Assembly: GCA_964359035.1 (NCBI GenBank)
Contig: CAYHRM010000001.1
Location: 1-35,530, forward strand
Reading direction: 5' to 3'
Length of the DNA stretch: 35,530 nucleotides
Source of the DNA: an uncultured Planctomycetales bacterium
GTDB lineage: Bacteria; Omnitrophota; Gorgyraeia; Gygaellales; Profunditerraquicolaceae
Made by a program: the position numbers and the translations under genes. Position 1 is the stretch's first letter. Every line of letters begins with the position of its first letter. This document shows positions 16,251-35,530 of the stretch, in pieces. The notes beneath the pieces are model-generated. The model worked only from the letters and a program-made list of their open reading frames with translations, searched no databases and had not been told where the DNA came from.

Positions 16251-17041
16251 GAAATATGATGGGTTTTTGCAAGATTCTTTGCAAGAATTTTGGGGTTTTC
16301 AATCAAATCCGTAGCACTCCAGGCATCACTACAGTATTTCTTCATGTATACATAAGGCAGATATCCGTATCCATTGTTTCCCCAATTCGCGCCCCAGGAG
16401 TTCTTAAATTTAAAGATACTTAATTTATCATCATAGCCCACGATACAGATAGCATGTCCGCCAACTGAATTTTCCTTAGGCTTAGGCATCGGAATCAGGC
16501 CGCTACTTTGTACTTTTTTAGTAAACCAAGATTCAAAGACCTTTACTCCCGCCACAAAAGGCCCATTGACTAATAAACTACGTTTCATTTCGAGCTGAGA
16601 GTTAATTCGGGCATAGGCTTTAATCTTAAACTTTATGGCATCCTTATCCGCACCCGCTCGAGGAAGGTTTTTTTTCTGCGCAATATAAGGCCAGAATGAT
16701 TCATGACAAACGCCATAATTTAATAAAACCTTCATCGCAATACGCGGATAAGTGCCTTCTTCAAAAGGAATGCCATCAAATTTTTTACACAAATTATAAA
16801 GAAAACGGGGTGAAAGTCTCTCCAGCCGATGATATTCTTTTTTATCCTGAAACTCTTTAACTCCAGTAACCGAGGCAAACGCCACACAGGTTCCTTCGCT
16901 TCCCTGATTTCTAACCGGGCTCATTAATTTGGTAAAATCAAAACTGACTGGGACAACAACTATAGGCAGAACCAAGCCCATGGGGATATCCCGAGAGTCT
17001 TTGGGATCTTTAAAACAACCTAAAGATAAACGTATATTCAT
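16247..17041 (-). CDS. Papain-like cysteine peptidase (family C1)
   Basis: The catalytic Cys box is NQGSEGTCVAFAS, the His box is GGHAICIVGYDD and the Asn/Trp box is KNSWGANWGNNGYGYL. I place the start at the ATG at 17041 (MNIRLSL), not at the TTG at 17059 used by the track. Confidence 0.85.
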   Translation of the reverse strand: MNIRLSLGCFKDPKDSRDIPMGLVLPIVVVPVSFDFTKLMSPVRNQGSEGTCVAFASVTGVKEFQDKKEYHRLERLSPRFLYNLCKKFDGIPFEEGTYPRIAMKVLLNYGVCHESFWPYIAQKKNLPRAGADKDAIKFKIKAYARINSQLEMKRSLLVNGPFVAGVKVFESWFTKKVQSSGLIPMPKPKENSVGGHAICIVGYDDKLSIFKFKNSWGANWGNNGYGYLPYVYMKKYCSDAWSATDLIENPKILAKNLAKTHHIS

Positions 17042-17056: not shown

Positions 17057-17060
17057 CAAA

Positions 17061-17149
17061 ATTAGGGGACGCTTCTATTTTTTAAAATAATTGTAGCGGA
17101 GGTTTAAACCTCCGCTACTTAATCATAATAAATAGAAACGTCCCCTAAT
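17061..17149. repeat. Family-A inverted repeat, copy A1 (20-nt arms, 49-nt spacer)
   Basis: The arms are ATTAGGGGACGCTTCTATTT (17061..17080) and AAATAGAAACGTCCCCTAAT (17130..17149), complementary at 19 of 20 positions. The right arm includes the stop codon of the upstream gene. Confidence 0.85.
17093..17118. repeat. Family-B perfect palindrome, copy B1
   Basis: GTAGCGGAGGTTTAAACCTCCGCTAC is a 26-nt perfect palindrome centred on GTTTAAAC. It sits inside the spacer of A1. Confidence 0.85.
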
Positions 17150-17892
17150 TAAAACGGAATACTGACACCTGCTTCAATTGCCTGTTCTTTTTGGCGGGAT
17201 TTTAGTCTTAAGAAAACTTCAGCATCGAGATGCTCTAGGAATTTATGAGTCATGATGAGAGTTATGCCTACGGATTTGCCTAATTCATTTTTAAGCGCAA
17301 AGATAACTTTGTTAGGGCCAAAAGTTACCGTTGCGCCAAATTCTATCGATTTAATATTGCCTTGGCCATAATCCATTTGGAAAGTTAACCCTAAGTTGCG
17401 GCCGAATTTCCATTCGCCAAAAAGAATAATCAGCTGACCAGGTGCTGTCAGGCGACTTTGACGCAGGCCTACGCCAATACGATAACGAATCTCTCCTTTT
17501 TTTGGATAAAACGTGGGTGATTCAAGTTGGACCTTGAATTCAAAACGCGAAGTCGAGCTGCCTTCAAGAAAATAAACCAGGCAATTAGCTGAAGATATGT
17601 TCCAATAGCCCTTAAAGGTTAATGAGTCGCGGCCATCTTCAGATGTATATTCAATCTGCTGATATTTGTTTAGTTTCCAGCTTCCCTTAAAGATATAAGT
17701 CTCCGGTGGGCCTTTGTGGCCAGTAACTTCAAAACAAAGTTCATTGTAATCATTGGCGCGCCAAGTGCCTTTAAGTTTAAGTATGCGCAGGCTTTGGCGA
17801 TGAGTTAAAGAATCAGTTTGGATGGTTTCAAGGACCAGGGAATTTGATTCAGCTACGATAAAACGCTTACGAATGCTGATTTTGGGCTTCAT
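17149..17892 (-). CDS. Hypothetical protein with internal KGxW repeats
   Basis: 247 aa. There are four spaced copies of the motif: LKLKGTWRAN, YIFKGSWKLN, LTFKGYWNIS and LILFGEWKFG. The composition suggests an all-beta protein. The C-terminus is ...EAGVSIPF. There is no N-terminal hydrophobic signal, and I recognise no family. The ATG lies 26 nt inside the upstream gene. Confidence 0.6.
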   Translation of the reverse strand: MKPKISIRKRFIVAESNSLVLETIQTDSLTHRQSLRILKLKGTWRANDYNELCFEVTGHKGPPETYIFKGSWKLNKYQQIEYTSEDGRDSLTFKGYWNISSANCLVYFLEGSSTSRFEFKVQLESPTFYPKKGEIRYRIGVGLRQSRLTAPGQLIILFGEWKFGRNLGLTFQMDYGQGNIKSIEFGATVTFGPNKVIFALKNELGKSVGITLIMTHKFLEHLDAEVFLRLKSRQKEQAIEAGVSIPF

Positions 17893-22629: not shown

Positions 22630-22904
22630 TTAGCTACCTCCTTGCCTGCCGCCAAGCAAGCCATATTTAAAATATAAAAATATAAGCACCGCCAATGTAA
22701 TTAAAGTTACAATATTGGCAATTATAATTATGGGATCCTTCCGGGCAATTCCATAAACCAGCCACAAACACCCGCGGAAAGTTGAAATAAAGTAACCGGG
22801 CTAACATCCTTAACCGAGCGGGTCTTCAGCGACCGGAATATCTGCGGAACAAAAGAAAACATGGTTAGCGTAGCTGCTAGCGCGCCGATTACGGTCCAAA
22901 TCAT
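22630..22904 (-). pseudogene. SemiSWEET (PQ-loop) sugar transporter gene interrupted by an apparent 1-nt deletion
   Basis: Not in the ORF track. The first frame (22904..22728) gives [46 protein letters not shown]... The second frame (to the stop at 22630) gives ...CLWLVYGIARKDPIIIIANIVTLITLAVLIFLYFKYGLLGGRQGGS. Together these make a typical three-TM SemiSWEET of about 91 aa. The span is 275 nt, which is not a multiple of 3. The frames switch at the T3 run at 22766..22768. Confidence 0.65.
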
Positions 22905-24073
22905 AATATTATTTTTAGGAATCTGCGGGAGCCGGCTTTAATGATACCGGGTTCAAGCGGGATAAAATCATCTTTTTGGATCTTTACATCATTAAAACTA
23001 ACTGCCCCCTGCTGAATAAGCCTGCGCGCTTCATTACCGCTAGCCACCAGCTTACTTTCAACAAGTATAGCCAAAATATTCTTCTTGCCATCAGTTTTAA
23101 ACTTTAGCATATCGGCAGGCACTTCTTTCTGAGAAAATACGCGACTAAACTCCTCCGCCTCTTTTTCTGCAGCTTGCACAGAATGATATTGCGCAATTAT
23201 GATCTTGGCTAAATTAACTTTTGCCTCTTTAGGGTGCAGCTGTTTAACTTTAATCAAATCTTCATCCGTAAGCAGTTCATAATATTTAAGCATTAGCTCA
23301 TCAGAAATGGACATGATCTTGCCAAACATCTCTTTTGCGGATTCATTGATCGCAATATAATTGCCAAAAGATTTGCTCATTTTGGCCACGCCATCAGTAC
23401 CTTCAAGTAACGGCATAGTGATAACCACCTGCTGTGGTTGATCATAATCCTTTTGTATCTCTCTGCCCATCAAAAGATTAAATTTCTGGTCAGTCCCACC
23501 CAATTCTACATCTGCCTTAAGTTCTACGGAATCATAACCCTGGATCAAAGGATATAAAAACTCTAGAATAGAAATATCTTCTCCGTTGGCATAACGTTTT
23601 TTAAAATCTTCTCGGGCCAACATCTGAGCAACGCTAGAATGCGTTGTTAAATCCAATAATCCTAATATATTAATTTTCTTAAACCACTCACTATTAAATC
23701 TAATTTCAAGTTTTTTACGATTAATATCTAGAACTTTAGCAACTTGCCTCTTATATGATTCCGCGTTACTAAGAACTTCTTTCGTAGTAAGTCGTTTTCT
23801 TTTTTCCGAACGACCAGTAGGATCTCCAATTTGACCAGTAAGATCACCAATAAGAAAAGTAACCTTGTGGCCACAATCCTGAAACTGACGCAGTTTGCGT
23901 AAAAGCACCGTATGGCCTAAATGTAAATCCGGCGCCGTCGGATCAAAGCCGGCTTTAATTTTTAAGGGGCGCTTAAATTTAATGCTCTGCGCCAGCTTCT
24001 TACGAAGCTCCTCTTCAGAGATTATCTCTACAGCGCCCCTTTTAATTATTTCTAATTGCTTTTCGATATCCAT
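22901..24073 (-). CDS. tyrS: Tyrosyl-tRNA synthetase (short form with C-terminal S4-like domain)
   Basis: The HIGH motif is DLHLGHTV and the KMSKS motif is AKMSKSFGN. The S4-like tail is [18 protein letters not shown] place the start at the ATG at 24073 ([18 protein letters not shown]), by comparison with known TyrRS N-termini. The track start at 24121 is a TTG inside repeat A2. Confidence 0.9.
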
Positions 24074-24083
24074 ATTTAAATCT

Positions 24084-24141
24084 GGGACCGTTTCTATTTT
24101 TCTAGGAACTGCCCCCATCAAATAAAAATAGAAACGGTCCC
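24084..24141. repeat. Family-A inverted repeat, copy A2 (18-nt perfect arms, 22-nt spacer)
   Basis: The arms are GGGACCGTTTCTATTTTT (24084..24101) and AAAAATAGAAACGGTCCC (24124..24141). The element fills the gap between the rpsA stop (24148) and the tyrS ATG (24073). Confidence 0.85.
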
Positions 24142-24147
24142 TTTTAA

Positions 24148-25689
24148 TTATAGCCGTGCTGTCAGGCCAATCTTTGCCTGCTCCACATCCACCTTAATTA
24201 CTTTTACCTTTATTTTATCTCCAGGCTTAAGATTAGCAACAGTTTCTTTTTCAATCTCGCTAGAATAAATCAAGCCCTCCAACTCATCATCAATCTTAGC
24301 AAATACTCCGAATTCAGTAAGGCTGGAAACCTCTGCCTCTAATTGCGTATCCAGCGGATAACGCTCAGCAATTTTTGCCCAAGGATTCTCCTGCAATTGC
24401 TTTAACCCTAAAGCAATCCGCCGATTTGTCGCATCCACTGACAAAATAGAAACATCAATCTTCTGCCCCTTCTTTAAAACATCCTGAGGATGGCCGATTC
24501 TTTTGGTCCAGGAAATATCGGAAACATGAATCATCCCTTCCAGATTAGAATCCAACTCCACAAACGCCCCATACTCTGTGAAACCGCGCACCTTACCGGA
24601 CACGCTAGAGCCCACCAAATACTTGCTCTCTGCTTCCAGCCAAGGATTCTGCTCCAACTGTTTTAGACTCAATGAAATCCTGCGAGAATCTTTTTCTACG
24701 CTTAAGATCTGAGTTTCTACCATGTCTCCGACGGCAAACATCTCCCCCGGATTATTCACACGCTTAGTCCAGGAGATTTCAGAAACATGGATTAAGCCTT
24801 CAATCCCTTTTTCCAGCTCCACAAAAACTCCGTAAGGTAAAATATTAACCACTTTACCTTTTACCTTTGAACCGATGGTAAACTTGCCTTCAATATCTTT
24901 CCAGGGATCAGACAATCTTTGCTTAAGGCCTAAAGAAACTTTGCCAGAAGCCTGGTCAAGATTTAAGATCATTACTTCAATCTTATCTCCGAGTGCCACA
25001 ATTTCAGATGGGTGGCTAATCTTGGACCAAGACATATCTGTAATATGTAACAGGCCATCTAATCCACCTAAATCAATAAAGGCGCCAAAATCCGTAATCG
25101 CCTTGACTAACCCGGGATAGATATTACCAATCTTTAATTCACCCCAAATTTTACCCTTAGCCACATCTCGATCCGCCTGCACTGCCTCGCGGCGGCTGAC
25201 AATAATACTCCGCCGTAAATTATTCACCTTAACAATCTTAAACTTGAATATCTTATACAAGATATCTTTGTCCGCAATATTCCTAAAAGAAGAAAGCGAG
25301 CTCGGCAAAAACCCTTCAATCCCCATAATATCTACTAGGAACCCACCCTTAACCTTCTTTACCGGTTTCCCATCGACCAATGTTCCATCATTAGATAACT
25401 TAACAATTTTATCCCAGCCCTGCATGCGCATAGCTTTTTCACGCGACAGGGTCATTACCCCGAAATCATTTTCCATGGTCTCCAGCAAAAACTCCATCTC
25501 TTTGCCAATCTCCAAATCCTCGGTGCTGAATTCAGCAATGGGGACGATACCTTCTGATTTAAAACCCACATCCACTAAAACTTCTTTAGTTTTAATTTCA
25601 ACAATTTTACCACTGACAACTTGGCCTTCTTTTAAAACCTTAATACTTTGGTTATACAATAACTCTAATTCTGATCTTGAATCTGACAT
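24148..25689 (-). CDS. rpsA: 30S ribosomal protein S1
   Basis: 513 aa with six S1 (OB-fold) repeats, for example [33 protein letters not shown] and [26 protein letters not shown] lies 8 nt upstream of the ATG. Confidence 0.93.
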
Positions 25690-25716: not shown

Positions 25717-25786
25717 CGTCATTGCGAGGCACGAAGTGCCGAAGCAATCCCGTTAGAGAGATTGCTTCGCTTCGCTCGCAATGACG
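25717..25786. repeat. Family-C repeat: two units in inverted orientation
   Basis: The left unit is GTCATTGCGAGGCACGAAGTGCCGAAGCAATC (25718..25749). The right unit (25760..25785), reverse-complemented, reads GTCATTGCGAGCGAAGCGAAGCAATC. A 10-nt centre separates them. Confidence 0.85.
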
Positions 25787-27358: not shown

Positions 27359-27394
27359 CACCAGTAGTGGGGGTTTAAACCCCCACTACTGGTG
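27359..27394. repeat. Family-B perfect palindrome, copy B2
   Basis: CACCAGTAGTGGGGGTTTAAACCCCCACTACTGGTG is a 36-nt perfect palindrome between the rpe stop and the mutase start. No U-tract follows it on the transcribed strand. Confidence 0.85.
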
Positions 27395-31954: not shown

Positions 31955-31975
31955 GCTAAAAAATAGACAAATAAC

Positions 31976-32011
31976 CAGTAGTAGTGTGGGTTTAAACCCA
32001 CACTACTACTG
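31976..32011 (-). terminator. Family-B perfect palindrome, copy B3; plausible intrinsic terminator after rng
   Basis: CAGTAGTAGTGTGGGTTTAAACCCACACTACTACTG has a 15-bp stem. On the minus strand it is followed by GTTATTTGTCTATTTTTTAG. Confidence 0.55.
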
Positions 32012-32044
32012 TTAATAACTAGCTACCTCTGCCTACTTTTATTA

Positions 32045-33487
32045 TTAGCTGAATTTTATGTCTTCTAGATGCGCGGTAGGGTTAGAAATAAGGTTGACCT
32101 TAATCCGGTATTTATGCTCAATCGCGCGCAGGGCCTCCTTATCTTTTAAGATTTCATCAATCACAGGCGGTGCCAAGGTAAGCGAAGCCTGTTTTAAGGT
32201 TTTGCCCTTAAGATAACGCTTAAGCTCTTTTAAAGCAAAAATTCCTAAGGTTTGAGGTGAACGCAACTTGCCTTTGCCCTTACAATATGGACAAGGCTGA
32301 AAAGAAAGCATCTGCACTGTCTTGTGAATACGTTCTCGAGTCATCTCTACTATACCAAACTTAGAAATCTCCAAAATATCATATTTTGCCCGGTCACCAG
32401 ACAAAGCATTTTTCAAGATATTCAATAACTCCCGGCGATGCCCTTCACGTTCCATATCAATAAAATCAATGACAATAATTCCGCCCAAATCCCGCAACAC
32501 AAGCTGCCGGGCAATCTCTACCGCCGCCTCAGCGTTAACTTTAAAAGCCATATCCTCTTGATTAACCTTTTTCTTAAACCCACCGCTATTTACATCAATC
32601 ACCACCAAGCCTTCCGTGGGTTCGATAATTAAATAAGCTTTAGATTTCATATAAACATGGCTTTCAAAAATATGGTTAATCTGCTTCTCCACATCTTTTG
32701 CGCCAAATAAATCATCACCCCGATAAAGCTCGACTTTTTTAGACAGATAACTTAAAAAAGTGCGCATAAAATGTTGAATCCGATAAAATTCAGGTTTAGA
32801 ATCAACAATCAGTTTAGAAACATCCTCAGTAAAAGAATCGCGAATTGCCCGCAACGCCAAATCATACTCTTCATAAACCAAAGCCGGAGCCTGTTTACCC
32901 TGCGCCGTCTTCTCCAGGCGCTTCCATAATTTATAAAGAAACTGTGCATCGCGGATTAACTCCTGCTTAGATCTTCCGCTAGCTGCCGTGCGCACAATAA
33001 ACCCGACTGGATCAGGAAATTTAAGTTCTTTAAATATCTCACGTAAACGCCTTCTTTCAGGTTCATCCTCAATACGCCTAGAGATACCCCCTTGCTTATC
33101 CAGCGGCATAATCACTAAATACCGGCCAGCTAAACCAATCTCCGTAGAAAGCCGCGGCCCCTTAGTACCGAAAGACTCTTTAACTACCTGAACCAAAACC
33201 TCTTGGCCTTTTTTTACTTCTTTGATCGGAGTTTGTTGCGGCGCTTCGATAGACTCATAGGCAGATTCGATTTCAGATAAATAAAGAAAACCATTTTTAG
33301 CTAAACCAATATCAACAAATGCTGCGCCGATAGACGGCATAACCGCCTCAATGCGGCCTTTATAGATATTCCCCACGATAGTGCGGTCCTGCGGGCGCTC
33401 AATATGAAACTCTAAAAGCTGGCCGTTTTCAACGATTGCAACGCGCTTCTCCTGAGCTTCTGCATTAATTAAAATTTCCTTGGACAT
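32045..33487 (-). CDS. rng: Ribonuclease E/G family (RNase G-sized)
   Basis: 480 aa. The S1 domain includes GNIYKGRIEAVMPSIGAAFVDIG. The catalytic region includes IDVNSGG and VIDFIDM. The Zn-link motif is CPYCKGKG. Confidence 0.9.
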   Translation of the reverse strand: MSKEILINAEAQEKRVAIVENGQLLEFHIERPQDRTIVGNIYKGRIEAVMPSIGAAFVDIGLAKNGFLYLSEIESAYESIEAPQQTPIKEVKKGQEVLVQVVKESFGTKGPRLSTEIGLAGRYLVIMPLDKQGGISRRIEDEPERRRLREIFKELKFPDPVGFIVRTAASGRSKQELIRDAQFLYKLWKRLEKTAQGKQAPALVYEEYDLALRAIRDSFTEDVSKLIVDSKPEFYRIQHFMRTFLSYLSKKVELYRGDDLFGAKDVEKQINHIFESHVYMKSKAYLIIEPTEGLVVIDVNSGGFKKKVNQEDMAFKVNAEAAVEIARQLVLRDLGGIIVIDFIDMEREGHRRELLNILKNALSGDRAKYDILEISKFGIVEMTRERIHKTVQMLSFQPCPYCKGKGKLRSPQTLGIFALKELKRYLKGKTLKQASLTLAPPVIDEILKDKEALRAIEHKYRIKVNLISNPTAHLEDIKFS

Positions 33488-33770
33488 CTTTTACTTCAAT
33501 CCCTTCTGGTAATTTTTTTTGCAACCTATTTTTAAAGTCATCCGGCTCAACCGGAAATCTTAAAACGATCGAAGCCTCCTCGTGTTCACTTTCCAATCCT
33601 AATTTTAAGGCTCTTTTTAAACTTAATTTAGGATGCGGGGAAAAACCTTCTGACATTTTAAGCGGCAACTCTGCCCGGCGCATAGCGCGCATAAATAGGC
33701 GCATCAGGTCTAAATGCGAAATATACCGCATCAGGCCTTTCTTAGAAAAACTAAAATTTACTCTATACAT
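33465..33770 (-). CDS. DUF2344 (radical-SAM-linked) family protein, N-terminal-domain-only version
   Basis: 101 aa with MRYISHLDLMRLFMRAMRRAELPLKMSEGFSPHPKLSLKRALKLGLESEHE, which matches the family N-terminus as I recall it. It overlaps the rng start by 23 nt. Confidence 0.65.
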   Translation of the reverse strand: MYRVNFSFSKKGLMRYISHLDLMRLFMRAMRRAELPLKMSEGFSPHPKLSLKRALKLGLESEHEEASIVLRFPVEPDDFKNRLQKKLPEGIEVKDVQGNFN

Positions 33771-33782
33771 ATTTTAAAATCT

Positions 33783-33838
33783 AGGGGCCGTTTCTATTTT
33801 TAATCCTAATCTAACCAAGAAAAGTAGAAACGGCCCCT
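33783..33838. repeat. Family-A inverted repeat, copy A3 (18-nt arms, 20-nt spacer)
   Basis: The arms are AGGGGCCGTTTCTATTTT (33783..33800) and AAAGTAGAAACGGCCCCT (33821..33838), complementary at 17 of 18 positions. The element lies between the secretin stop and the DUF2344 ATG. Confidence 0.85.
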
Positions 33839-33850
33839 GATTTCACAATT

Positions 33851-35530
33851 TTATTTCTTCTTCTTAGCCTCTGCTAAAGGACCTTTTCTAGATTTAGTAA
33901 TTGATGGCTGTTCCTTAATCTCAAACACTGCAGTGCGGCCTAATCTCTTTTCTAACTTAGCCAACTCCTCAGGAGTATATTCATCTTCCCGAACAATTCT
34001 AGCAGTAATAAAAATTAAAAGATCAATTTTGGTTACAGTATTGGTCTCTCGCCCAAAAAGCTTTCCTAACCAAGGAATGTCTTTTAAAAAAGGTATGCCA
34101 ATAACTTCTATCCCCTTAACATCCTTAAGCAAACCACCAATTACAATCGTCTCTTTATCTTTTAATAAAACTTGCGTCTGAACTTCGCGCACATCAATAA
34201 TCGGATACAAAGTGGTCGTAGCATCCGTCGAGCTGCCGGCAGTAGAAGTAGCCGTAACGTTAGAATTAGAAGAGGTAATACTCGGGTGGATGATCATATT
34301 GATGTAACCCTCTTCACTTATCTGAGGCACCACGTTTAACCGAATACCAATCTCCTGATAATAATCTAAAGTCTGAGTAATTGTAGAATTAGTCCCGGTA
34401 GTCCCAGCAGTAATCGTAGATGCAAGTATCGGTGTATGATAACCTACCAGCATCGATGCTTCTTGATTATCCAATGTAAGTATGCTGGGAGCAGAAAGAG
34501 TGTTGGTATCGGCAGCATCTTCTAAGGCATGAATAACCGCCTCAAACTTAGTACCGGTTAACTTTTGAAAAATAAATTCCGCACCCGCGTTATAAGGCTC
34601 ATAACCTAAAATTCCCGTCGATGCTGGGCCAAATAATGAAGGCACCAGCGAGGAACTACCCGTAGCAATCGTACCCGCGTGGCCTCCGGTAGCAGTACCT
34701 GTTTCCGCCCCCTGTGGCGTAATGGCATTGGTTCTGGCAGAATTAGTTCCCGAACCCATACCCCAGTCCAAACCAATATCTCTTAATTTATCCCGGCTTA
34801 CCTCAATTATTTTCGTTTCAATTAAAACCTGTTTCGGCTTAATATCAATTTTAGGTAAAATTATATTGTGTATCCGATCCAAAGTACTAGCCGTATCCGT
34901 AATTACCAACATTTTGGATTTCACTGAGGGGTCAAACTCCGCTTTTTTCATCACTGTATCTCCCGCGGCATTTTTTTCATAAGAAACTGTCTCAGACCTA
35001 GTGGTTCCTGCTATTTCTTTTACCAAGGCGGCGCTAGAAGAAGAATCCCGGCCAATTTTAAAAGTACCAAACTGCCAACCTTTCTGCCCGCGGGTATATA
35101 GAACTGAGATCTTTCCTCTTGGTGAAAGCAAGGGAATAAGAATTTTCTGCGCATCCTGCGCATCCAGAAATCTTAAGGTGATAATCTCAGTTTGCAAGGG
35201 CTCCTCGGCGGCAATTTTAGCGACATTTTCTATCTTGGTGACTAAAATAACATTACCCTGCCGCTGATAACCAAACCCATAAGTCTTTAAGATCACGTCC
35301 ATGGCAATCTCCCAGGGAACATCACTCAAGCGCACTGAAACATTACCAATCACATCCGGAGTTGTAACAATATTCATTCCAGATTTATAAGAAATTATCT
35401 TTAGAACATTATTAATATCTGCTTCTTTAAAATCCAAAGTAACATTACCCGCAGAAGTTAAATTTTGCTCAGTATTTACAGGCACAACCGGAGCCTCTGT
35501 TAGTTGTACTTGAGCCGCCAGAGTACTAGG
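33851..35530 (-). CDS. Secretin (PilQ/GspD family), N-terminus beyond the window edge
   Basis: The secretin N-domain begins VTLDFKEADINNVLKIISYKSGMNIV. The C-terminal secretin core includes GIPFLKDIPWLGKLFG...IDLLIFITARIV. T/S/G-rich linkers are present. The frame stays open upstream of the GTG at 35485 to position 35530, and no signal peptide is visible, so the gene is partial. Confidence 0.85.
   Translation of the reverse strand, partial: PSTLAAQVQLTEAPVVPVNTEQNLTSAGNVTLDFKEADINNVLKIISYKSGMNIVTTPDVIGNVSVRLSDVPWEIAMDVILKTYGFGYQRQGNVILVTKIENVAKIAAEEPLQTEIITLRFLDAQDAQKILIPLLSPRGKISVLYTRGQKGWQFGTFKIGRDSSSSAALVKEIAGTTRSETVSYEKNAAGDTVMKKAEFDPSVKSKMLVITDTASTLDRIHNIILPKIDIKPKQVLIETKIIEVSRDKLRDIGLDWGMGSGTNSARTNAITPQGAETGTATGGHAGTIATGSSSLVPSLFGPASTGILGYEPYNAGAEFIFQKLTGTKFEAVIHALEDAADTNTLSAPSILTLDNQEASMLVGYHTPILASTITAGTTGTNSTITQTLDYYQEIGIRLNVVPQISEEGYINMIIHPSITSSNSNVTATSTAGSSTDATTTLYPIIDVREVQTQVLLKDKETIVIGGLLKDVKGIEVIGIPFLKDIPWLGKLFGRETNTVTKIDLLIFITARIVREDEYTPEELAKLEKRLGRTAVFEIKEQPSITKSRKGPLAEAKKKK

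Follow-up and report, generated by a model that had tools for sequence, protein, structure and literature searches.

The subject of this report is a 35,530-nt stretch of a Candidatus Omnitrophota genome (the window), which contains three intergenic hairpins built from inverted copies of one conserved arm. We refer to these inverted repeats as family A, and we think, with a probability of roughly 85%, that they are non-autonomous mobile DNA palindromes, namely the gene-less derivative of a unit in which the same arms enclose a transposase gene of the REP-associated tyrosine transposase (RAYT) class, REP standing for repetitive extragenic palindromic. The link comes from relatives, where the same arm, inverted, brackets just such a gene, so that the dispersed hairpins look like the unit minus its gene. 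Family A is REP/REPIN-like (a REPIN being a hairpin-forming REP doublet) or "TIRtron"-type, which makes it a selfish repeat of a kind already known, here in a lineage that has received little study. The original prediction, made from the letters of the window, had favoured either an element resembling a REP or a miniature inverted-repeat transposable element (MITE), or else an RNA-processing or stability element, and a genome-wide census of arms, the turnover of elements at gene junctions and the arm-bracketed gene in relatives all speak for the first of these and, specifically, for its REP-like form.

A repeat search finds the three hairpins where they had been reported, allowing for the choice of arm ends. 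In window coordinates, copy 1 has arms of 25 nt at 17060-17084 and 17126-17150 (92% complementary, 41 nt between them), copy 2 has arms of 18 nt at 24084-24101 and 24124-24141 (100% complementary, 22 nt between them) and copy 3 has arms of 19 nt at 33783-33801 and 33820-33838 (95% complementary, 18 nt between them). The outer arms of copy 1 (17060-17150) read AATTAGGGGACGCTTCTATTTTTTA and TAATAAATAGAAACGTCCCCTAATT, with cores at 17065-17080 and 17130-17145; those of copy 2, around its loop of 22 nt, read GGGACCGTTTCTATTTTT and AAAAATAGAAACGGTCCC; and copy 3 carries the core variant GGGGCCGTTTCTA[T/C]TTT, its whole extent of 33776-33845 including an outer extension AAATCTA / TGATTT. With at most one mismatch, the core CGTTTCTAYTTT matches the window 8 times against 0.98 expected, a number that 0 of 100 shuffles reached.

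The repeat family is real well beyond the window. Indeed, in the window's genome, an assembly of 188 contigs that totals 1.31 Mb (86% complete, G+C 38.6%), the arm GGGRMCGYTTCTAYTT occurs in about 22 inverted pairs, together with a small number of single arms, and the gap between the 16-nt cores ranges from 4 to 76 nt; the arm count of this genome in the census is 40. All 22 copies lie between crude gene calls in a genome 93% of which is covered by such calls, and about 16 of them begin 2-30 nt after a stop codon; when copies from this and other genomes are pooled, 11 of 79 fell within crude open reading frames (ORFs), these being in other genomes. No copy was found in a divergent gap of the window's genome, where such gaps make up 39 of 1185 junctions, but since only 8% of the intergenic DNA is divergent, this absence is not significant.

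These counts bear directly on the idea that the arms are protein-binding or uptake signals, either palindromic operators through which a global regulator acts or DNA uptake sequences (DUS) in inverted pairs, with a secretin gene nearby. Palindromic arms at variable spacing would suit such signals, and Neisseria is known to carry DUS in inverted pairs behind its genes. However, there are only about 40 arms per genome, they are nearly always paired and never lie within genes called in the window's genome, many congeners have no arms whatsoever, the position is behind stop codons and not at promoters, and a spacing of 4 to 76 nt also speaks against it, so we give this idea the slimmest of chances. 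A simple operator had already been doubted in the original prediction, and copy number, pairing and position behind stops now tell against it.

The anatomy of the element is also more elaborate than the window alone suggested, because the palindrome is longer than the 16-nt core. Over the 79 pooled copies, complementarity extends outward for about 7 nt (42-78%, compared with about 25% beyond) and inward for 3 nt (TTY, 81-96%), and the full arm of about 26 nt can be written RAAWMWW-GGGRMCGYTTCTAYTT-TTY. Two such arms, inverted, enclose a loop of about 15 nt whose sequence drifts freely, and the modal total length is 53-55 nt. The loops of the pooled copies resemble one another only faintly. The arm by itself has no internal complementarity and no GTAG, the hairpin being formed by the pair only; the GGGGACG variant does place a CGTC on the opposite strand, but within the stem and not as an unpaired tag. 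Three arm variants recur in the window's genome (GGGACCG, GGGGACG and GGGGCCG, the first being the commonest), and the claim that both arms of one copy carry the same variant holds for about 21 of the 22 genomic copies. As the same variants recur over many copies, we read this as the inheritance of sub-families by copying and not as independent compensatory change.

The spacers had been described as unrelated, which needs correction for copy 1, whose spacer is not arbitrary but contains a nested GTAG-type hairpin of a second repeat family, family B (GTAGCGGAGGTTTAAACCTCCGCTAC, 17093-17118), making copy 1 a composite. A second composite, at C85:1018-1106, is identical to copy 1 in 85 of 89 aligned columns, the rest being two mismatches and one 2-nt gap, and the match breaks off precisely at the ends of the element; because the likeness is confined to the element, the composite was copied as one unit, and recently. 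The nesting of other REP families in family-A loops is recurrent in other genomes.

Could the hairpins instead be MITEs of a classical DDE insertion sequence, with the arms as its terminal inverted repeats and a target-site duplication on either side? Inverted terminal arms enclosing a variable interior, together with a patchy distribution, would agree with this, but the shortest copies are 36-nt perfect palindromes, and the flanks are mutually complementary (42-78% over 7 nt) and not directly repeated, so that no target-site duplication is seen. In addition, the only gene found between such arms encodes a Y1 transposase of the HUH class, and we consider the DDE explanation highly improbable. 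Indeed, it was rejected, as were the DUS or uptake signal sequence (USS), operator and CRISPR-like readings, on copy number, pairing, position and flanks.

That gene came to light in relatives of the window's genome. In the congener G012, a family-A hairpin lies 67 nt ahead of the ATG of a Y1 gene, which runs onto a second contig (the two overlap by 141 nt) and whose stop codon falls within an arm, as GAA AAA TAG AAACGGTTCC. The stop codon is inside the arm in G012, G009 and G002 alike (GAA AAA TAG AAC/AAACGG...), and the loop of one nearby family-A copy of G012 contains some 30 nt of the 3'-terminal part of the transposase gene. A search of the genus with the G012 protein yields a clade at 55-61% identity, in G060, G009, G002, G052, G001, G017 and G005, separated by a gap in identity from the next paralogues at 47% or less. 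Family-A arms bracket the clade gene in seven congeners (G012, G060, G009, G002, G052, G017 and G005), at distances of 69-121 nt ahead of the ATG and 546-753 nt past it, and the sole clade gene without arms, that of G001, is 65 nt from a contig end. None of the 21 more distant paralogues scanned (33-47% identity) has family-A arms.

The association also reaches outside the genus: genomes from several families of the class carry one or two copies each of the arm variant GGGGACGGTTCTATTT. In both G147 and G194 this variant flanks a Y1 gene on either side, the gene sharing just 43% identity with the genus clade and the arm being identical at 16/16 positions, and in G129 it precedes such a Y1 gene at a contig end; these three genomes are of other families. 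Some units carry single inverted arms, as in G002 (-69/+672), G147 (-84/+700) and G194 (-54/+682), and elsewhere a full hairpin stands on one or both sides. The order of the unit is arm, promoter, transposase gene and arm, with the stop codon in or next to the distal arm. With arms at fixed positions around 7 of 8 genus-clade genes and at three loci outside the genus, chance neighbourhood is already unlikely. At the loci outside the genus, the 5' arm abuts a TTGACA box (L256, G147:C10 451-560; L257, G194:C66 4-60). The ATG stands about 35-70 nt past this box, and in G194 and G129 a -10-like box lies almost immediately ahead of it. The 5' arm may also act as an operator for the promoter of the transposase, whose mRNA may have next to no leader.

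What kind of enzyme would this be? By its sequence the cognate protein is a Y1 (HUH) transposase of the RAYT class: it matches Pfam Y1_Tnp at E ~1e-15, its best NCBIfam model is "REP-associated tyrosine transposase", and H60, H62, Y120, N124 and P125, which form the HxH and Y---NP motifs, are invariant in the protein alignment. Y---NP is the signature of class 2 Y1 enzymes (PMC6006769). In a profile search the best solved relative is 4ER8, the E. coli TnpA-REP (E 2.5e-11), followed by IS200/IS605 transposases at 1e-6 or weaker, while a single-sequence search against PDB sequences returned nothing at E 0.01. The cognate proteins share a conserved C-terminal tail (...GRP.K), and Pfam, searched up to E 1 with three proteins of 223-227 aa, found Y1_Tnp only, and no C-terminal helix-turn-helix (HTH) domain (Bac_DnaA_C, HTH_23/28).

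To see how far family A has travelled, we can look at an exact search for GGGACCGTTTCTATTT in 185,579 species genomes (596 Gb), in which about 280 single matches are expected by chance. Single matches do indeed come from many phyla, but paired matches come solely from Candidatus Omnitrophota metagenome-assembled genomes (MAGs) and from one MAG named "uncultured Planctomycetales". Among 48 genomes of the genus, arm counts run from 0, in 12 genomes, up to 348, with 0-1 for a reversed-pattern control; G024 (348 arms), G054 (187), G023 (140), G004 (48) and G047 (28) are among the copy-rich congeners, and the highest copy number is about 170 elements per genome. The MAG labelled uncultured Planctomycetales (G064) has 67-69% G+C, 26 arms and about 12 hairpins (loci L061, L100, L121, L142 and L168), and its RpsA is 46% identical to that of the window's genome, which is as distant as other Omnitrophota classes. 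Its arms are unchanged and AT-rich, and its loops share the high GC of the host (for example, GCCCGCGAGACCAGAAGC), which tells us that the constraint on the arm travels with the element and that loop sequence follows the genome in its drift. These features suggest that the element has moved between hosts that are very far apart. A Y1 gene was looked for in the G064 assembly and none was found. A further locus in another Omnitrophota MAG (L073; JAUYBI010000026.1, 2439-5952) holds four family-A elements, some of them doubled, at a spacing of 0.9-1.5 kb and with an identical GATGGGAACA flank ahead of each; the array may represent a repeated gene cassette.

In the window itself, every gene around the three hairpins is on the minus strand, and so the placement of the elements in gaps between stop and start, as originally described, stands as far as their intercistronic position goes, with the proviso that upstream and downstream have to be read on that strand. 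Copy 1 follows the stop of an ORF with no family assigned (17149-17892, minus strand) and precedes, on the same strand, a papain-type peptidase C1 gene, which starts at ATG 17039-17041 or TTG 17057-17059. Copy 2 lies 6 nt past the stop (24148-24150) of rpsA, which encodes ribosomal protein S1 with its six S1 domains (24148-25689, minus strand; Pfam S1, E 2.4e-80), and 7 nt ahead of the ATG (24074-24076) of the tyrosyl-tRNA synthetase gene tyrS (22901-24076, minus strand; Pfam tRNA-synt_1b, E 5.6e-77). Copy 3 lies between the stop (33851-33853) of a GspD/PilQ-like secretin gene (33851-35485, minus strand; Pfam Secretin, E 1.2e-42) and the ATG (33768-33770) of a DUF2344 protein gene (33465-33770, minus strand; Pfam DUF2344, E 3.2e-36). 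tyrS has no Shine-Dalgarno sequence, its leader being AGATTTAAAT, and the notion that the end of the element might serve as a ribosome-binding site was rejected, since its transcript-3' end reads ...GGTCCC and the downstream genes use their own GGAGG or an AU-rich leader.

The same junctions in relatives, a comparison that the original prediction had proposed, show presence, absence and replacement of elements. Between rpsA and tyrS, compared in 30 congeners, the two genes overlap as TAATG in 9 genomes and are separated by a short gap of 5-14 nt in 4; family A or A-like variants occupy the junction in 8 (in one of these a family-B hairpin is nested inside, and in one a different family), family B in 4, family E (GTCATTGCGAG) in 3 (G059, G023 and G050), and other hairpin families, including C and D, in the remaining genomes. 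On a TyrS tree even the closest relatives differ here: our genome has family A, its sister G059 has family E and the next (G003) is empty, while G047 (B) pairs with G017 (A), and G010 (empty) with G024 (A). At the secretin-DUF2344 junction, congeners have a gapless TAAATG, or family A, or other hairpin families, and at the site of copy 1 no element was found in relatives.

Such behaviour can of course be read in more than one way. It is conceivable, though we are doubtful, that the rpsA|tyrS and secretin|DUF2344 junctions are kept filled by any available mobile hairpin (A-E) because the host uses these as intercistronic mRNA modules that uncouple or tune the neighbouring genes, in which case the fast replacement between sister genomes would be turnover under selection for "some hairpin here". 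On the competing explanation, insertions would favour these junctions as hot spots, or existing hairpins would serve as landing pads for new ones.

A different explanation takes the hairpins to be primarily RNA elements of the host, which would act between cistrons to terminate transcripts, stabilise their 3' ends or mark sites for RNase processing, be kept by selection for that role and resemble one another through a shared RNA-binding factor. There are points in its favour: about 16 of 22 copies begin 2-30 nt past stop codons, some hairpin occupies both junctions in most congeners, and the predicted minus-strand RNA folds, at -33 to -53 kcal/mol with z of -6 to -11, are very stable (copy 1, -53.5 kcal/mol, z -11.1; copy 2, -32.8, z -6.4; copy 3, -35.2, z -6.9). 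Short U runs also trail the stems on the transcribed strand (UAAUUUUG, AGAUUUAAAU and UAGAUUUUAAAA), and to that extent the statement that no clean U-tract follows them needs softening, although these runs are weak. The stems do have a GC-rich base, but there are only 3-4 U, beginning 2-4 nt after the stem, and a consensus terminator scan makes no call on the elements (terminator-like sites number 24 against 19.2 +/- 4.5 expected, which is no enrichment); the original prediction had set textbook intrinsic terminators aside. Rfam, run over the whole window at gathering thresholds, matched no family.

Nor do base changes in the stems clearly favour an RNA fold. Four GGGGACG copies of our own genome show a C/T difference, which in every case makes a G-U pair on the transcribed strand, but over the 79 copies G-U pairs number 14 against 9 C-A mismatches, and we dropped this strand polarity as a signal. 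Twelve congeners have no copy, one and the same junction is in different states in sister genomes, the arms bracket a transposase gene, and AT-rich arms persist unchanged in a 68% GC genome; taken together, we judge an origin as host RNA elements to be quite unlikely. This does not deprive the hairpins of a life as RNA. The elements are very probably transcribed inside operons and, because they separate genes that in relatives overlap or stand end to end, they are in principle likely to affect decay, termination or coupling. They may have been co-opted for a secondary RNA role.

How, then, would mobile palindromes of this kind work? What the sequences show is the family, where it occurs, how it turns over and its tie to the transposase gene; the action of the enzyme, like any RNA effect, is our reconstruction. 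By analogy with E. coli TnpA-REP and its REP hairpins, we infer that the transposase would recognise the folded arm pair on single-stranded DNA, then cut and rejoin it, and in so doing move or copy the hairpins. Landing sites would be the few places that a 93%-coding genome tolerates, namely the short gaps just past stop codons. An inserted element would then be transcribed within the operon, splitting pairs that formerly overlapped or abutted (TAATG for rpsA|tyrS and TAAATG for secretin|DUF2344) with a very stable RNA hairpin, and any effect on mRNA decay, termination or translational coupling would be a side-effect, perhaps taken over by the host.

Several observations weigh against family A as a derivative of such a unit. 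No cleavage site, target site or transposition product has been observed. None of the three Y1 genes (Pfam PF01797) in the window's genome, on C15, C19 and C95, has family-A arms beside it; the best matches to the cognate transposase there are 35-38% identical, leaving no close relative in the assembly, and the birA neighbourhood, which is the site of the gene in G012, has no such gene. In the copy-rich assemblies G024, G054, G023, G004 and G047, too, no Y1 gene with family-A arms on both sides was found. On NF047646 the cognate clade reaches 55-60 bits, under the 80-bit equivalog cut-off, and the arms, not palindromic individually, lack the classical GTAG tag of REPs. The absence of the gene from copy-rich assemblies may reflect assembly loss at repeats, which is plausible in short-read assemblies given that 6 of 11 cognate loci are at contig ends or on contigs of <4 kb; it is also possible that the gene was lost while its repeats survived, or that another Y1 enzyme mobilises them.

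Family A has recognisable cousins among described systems. It resembles PATE-type elements in so far as these are miniature, gene-less IS200/IS605 derivatives that keep only the structured ends. Unlike family A, however, IS200/IS605 elements end in two different subterminal hairpins and not in inverted copies of one arm, and their transposases are class 1, whereas the family-A transposase, with its Y---NP, is class 2.

Closer, and together with the REPIN-RAYT systems the best published match, are the TIRtrons of Di Nocera, De Gregorio and Rocco (2013, PMC3733652), in which long inverted repeats flank Y1 genes (TIRYT) and some of these repeats run into the 3' end of the gene. Their repeats start with the motif GGGGWSAS and also occur as moderately abundant dispersed dimers (PMC3733652), and TIRYT have been equated with TnpA-Y1 subclass 2.1, or RAYT group 1 (Quentin et al. 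2018, PMC6006769). Family A shares the RAYT-like Y1 gene between long inverted, non-GTAG repeats, a G-rich repeat start (GGGGACG[C/T/G]), the overlap of one repeat with the 3' end of the gene, and scattered copies that are head-to-head dimers. The match of motifs is imperfect: GGGGACG[C/T/G] fits 7 of the 8 positions of GGGGWSAS, with G and not A at position 7, and the commonest variant, GGGACCG, fits fewer, while the flank of the Y1 gene on C19 (GGGGACAC) fits exactly. The family-A proteins also differ from subclass 2.1 in having no C-terminal HTH or DnaA-like domain in Pfam. Moreover, the 16-mers that flank RAYT group 1 genes have about 12 occurrences on average (PMC5581495), in contrast with up to about 170 elements per genome for family A.

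With the REPIN-RAYT systems (Bertels and Rainey 2011, PMC3116915; Bertels et al. 2017, PMC5581495), family A has in common its inverted doublets, long hairpins, conserved arms, less conserved spacer and extragenic position, as well as a single-copy Y1 gene flanked by the same sequences and a copy number that varies strongly among relatives. The differences are that a REPIN arm is a small imperfect palindrome, usually GTAG-tagged, and the family-A arm is neither, that family A is shorter (a 53-55 nt core), and that the cognate gene is absent from several copy-rich assemblies. The E. coli REPs and bacterial interspersed mosaic elements (BIMEs) with TnpA-REP (4ER8; Messing et al. 2012, PMC3479197) are similar in protein class, with its HUH and Y---NP motifs, and in the position of hairpins behind genes, between tandem or convergent genes; a passage of PMC3733652 has it that REPs affect mRNA stability and termination. 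Compared with these, family A has no GTAG guide tetranucleotide and a stem about twice as long, and belongs to another phylum.

The window's genome hosts other repeat families besides. Family B, found nested in copy 1, also contributes two perfect palindromes to the window, CACCAGTAGTGGGGGTTTAAACCCCCACTACTGGTG at 27359-27394 and CAGTAGTAGTGTGGGTTTAAACCCACACTACTACTG at 31971-32016, both GTAG-type REPs. There are about 29 family-B hairpins in the genome, together with a RAYT gene (G000:C95:3601-4125) that is flanked by family-B doublets and scores 125.9 bits on NF047646 (cut-off 80), and family B with this gene is a textbook REPtron. Family E appears in the window as an inverted pair at 25717-25786 (unit GTCATTGCGAG...CTCGCAATGAC), and has 49 units in the genome.

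All three Y1 genes of this genome were considered as the cognate of family A and rejected: the flanks of the C95 gene are family-B hairpins, those of the C19 gene belong to another repeat family, and the C15 gene is flanked by its own arms GGGACAGACACCTATTTTT only, which are present in 2 copies and absent elsewhere in the genome. This last locus (G000:C15:10620-11400, L002) encodes a RAYT-like protein of 227 aa between the inverted arms GGGACAGACACCTATTTTT / AAAAATAGGTGTCTGTCCC. The arm takes in the stop codon (GAA AAA TAG G...), the 5' arm is abutted by a TTGACA box, and the whole is a sister system to family A, though one without dispersed copies.

Two further observations concern the vicinity of tyrS. 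Most genomes of the genus have a RAYT-like gene for a 243-aa protein about 160 nt downstream of tyrS, without family-A flanks (for example, G012:C60:16987-17484, G053:C1:67026-67523 and G059:C9:30786-31289); the window has none there, and the gene is apparently inherited in place. In the window, a small PQ-loop/SemiSWEET-like ORF (22640-22900, minus strand) lies between tyrS and an rmlA-like gene and is read in two frames (...QLSAGVCGW | LWLVYGIARKDPIIIIANIVTLITLAVLIFLYFKYG), which points to a 1-nt frameshift or an assembly error near 22775.

What this means for those who annotate or study such genomes is, first, that the three hairpins, like those akin to them throughout the genus, are explained as mobile DNA and not as regulatory signals, which guards against their annotation as terminators or operators. 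It also provides a well-resolved example from Omnitrophota, an uncultured phylum, in which RAYT-like terminal repeats have multiplied, as hairpin dimers, to numbers usually reported only for GTAG-type REPINs, and in which the arms stay identical at 16/16 positions beside transposases that are 43% identical, and persist in a 68% GC genome. Finally, the tight junctions of this compact genome have been hit repeatedly by unrelated hairpin families, and they offer a natural system for following the effects of such insertions on operon expression.

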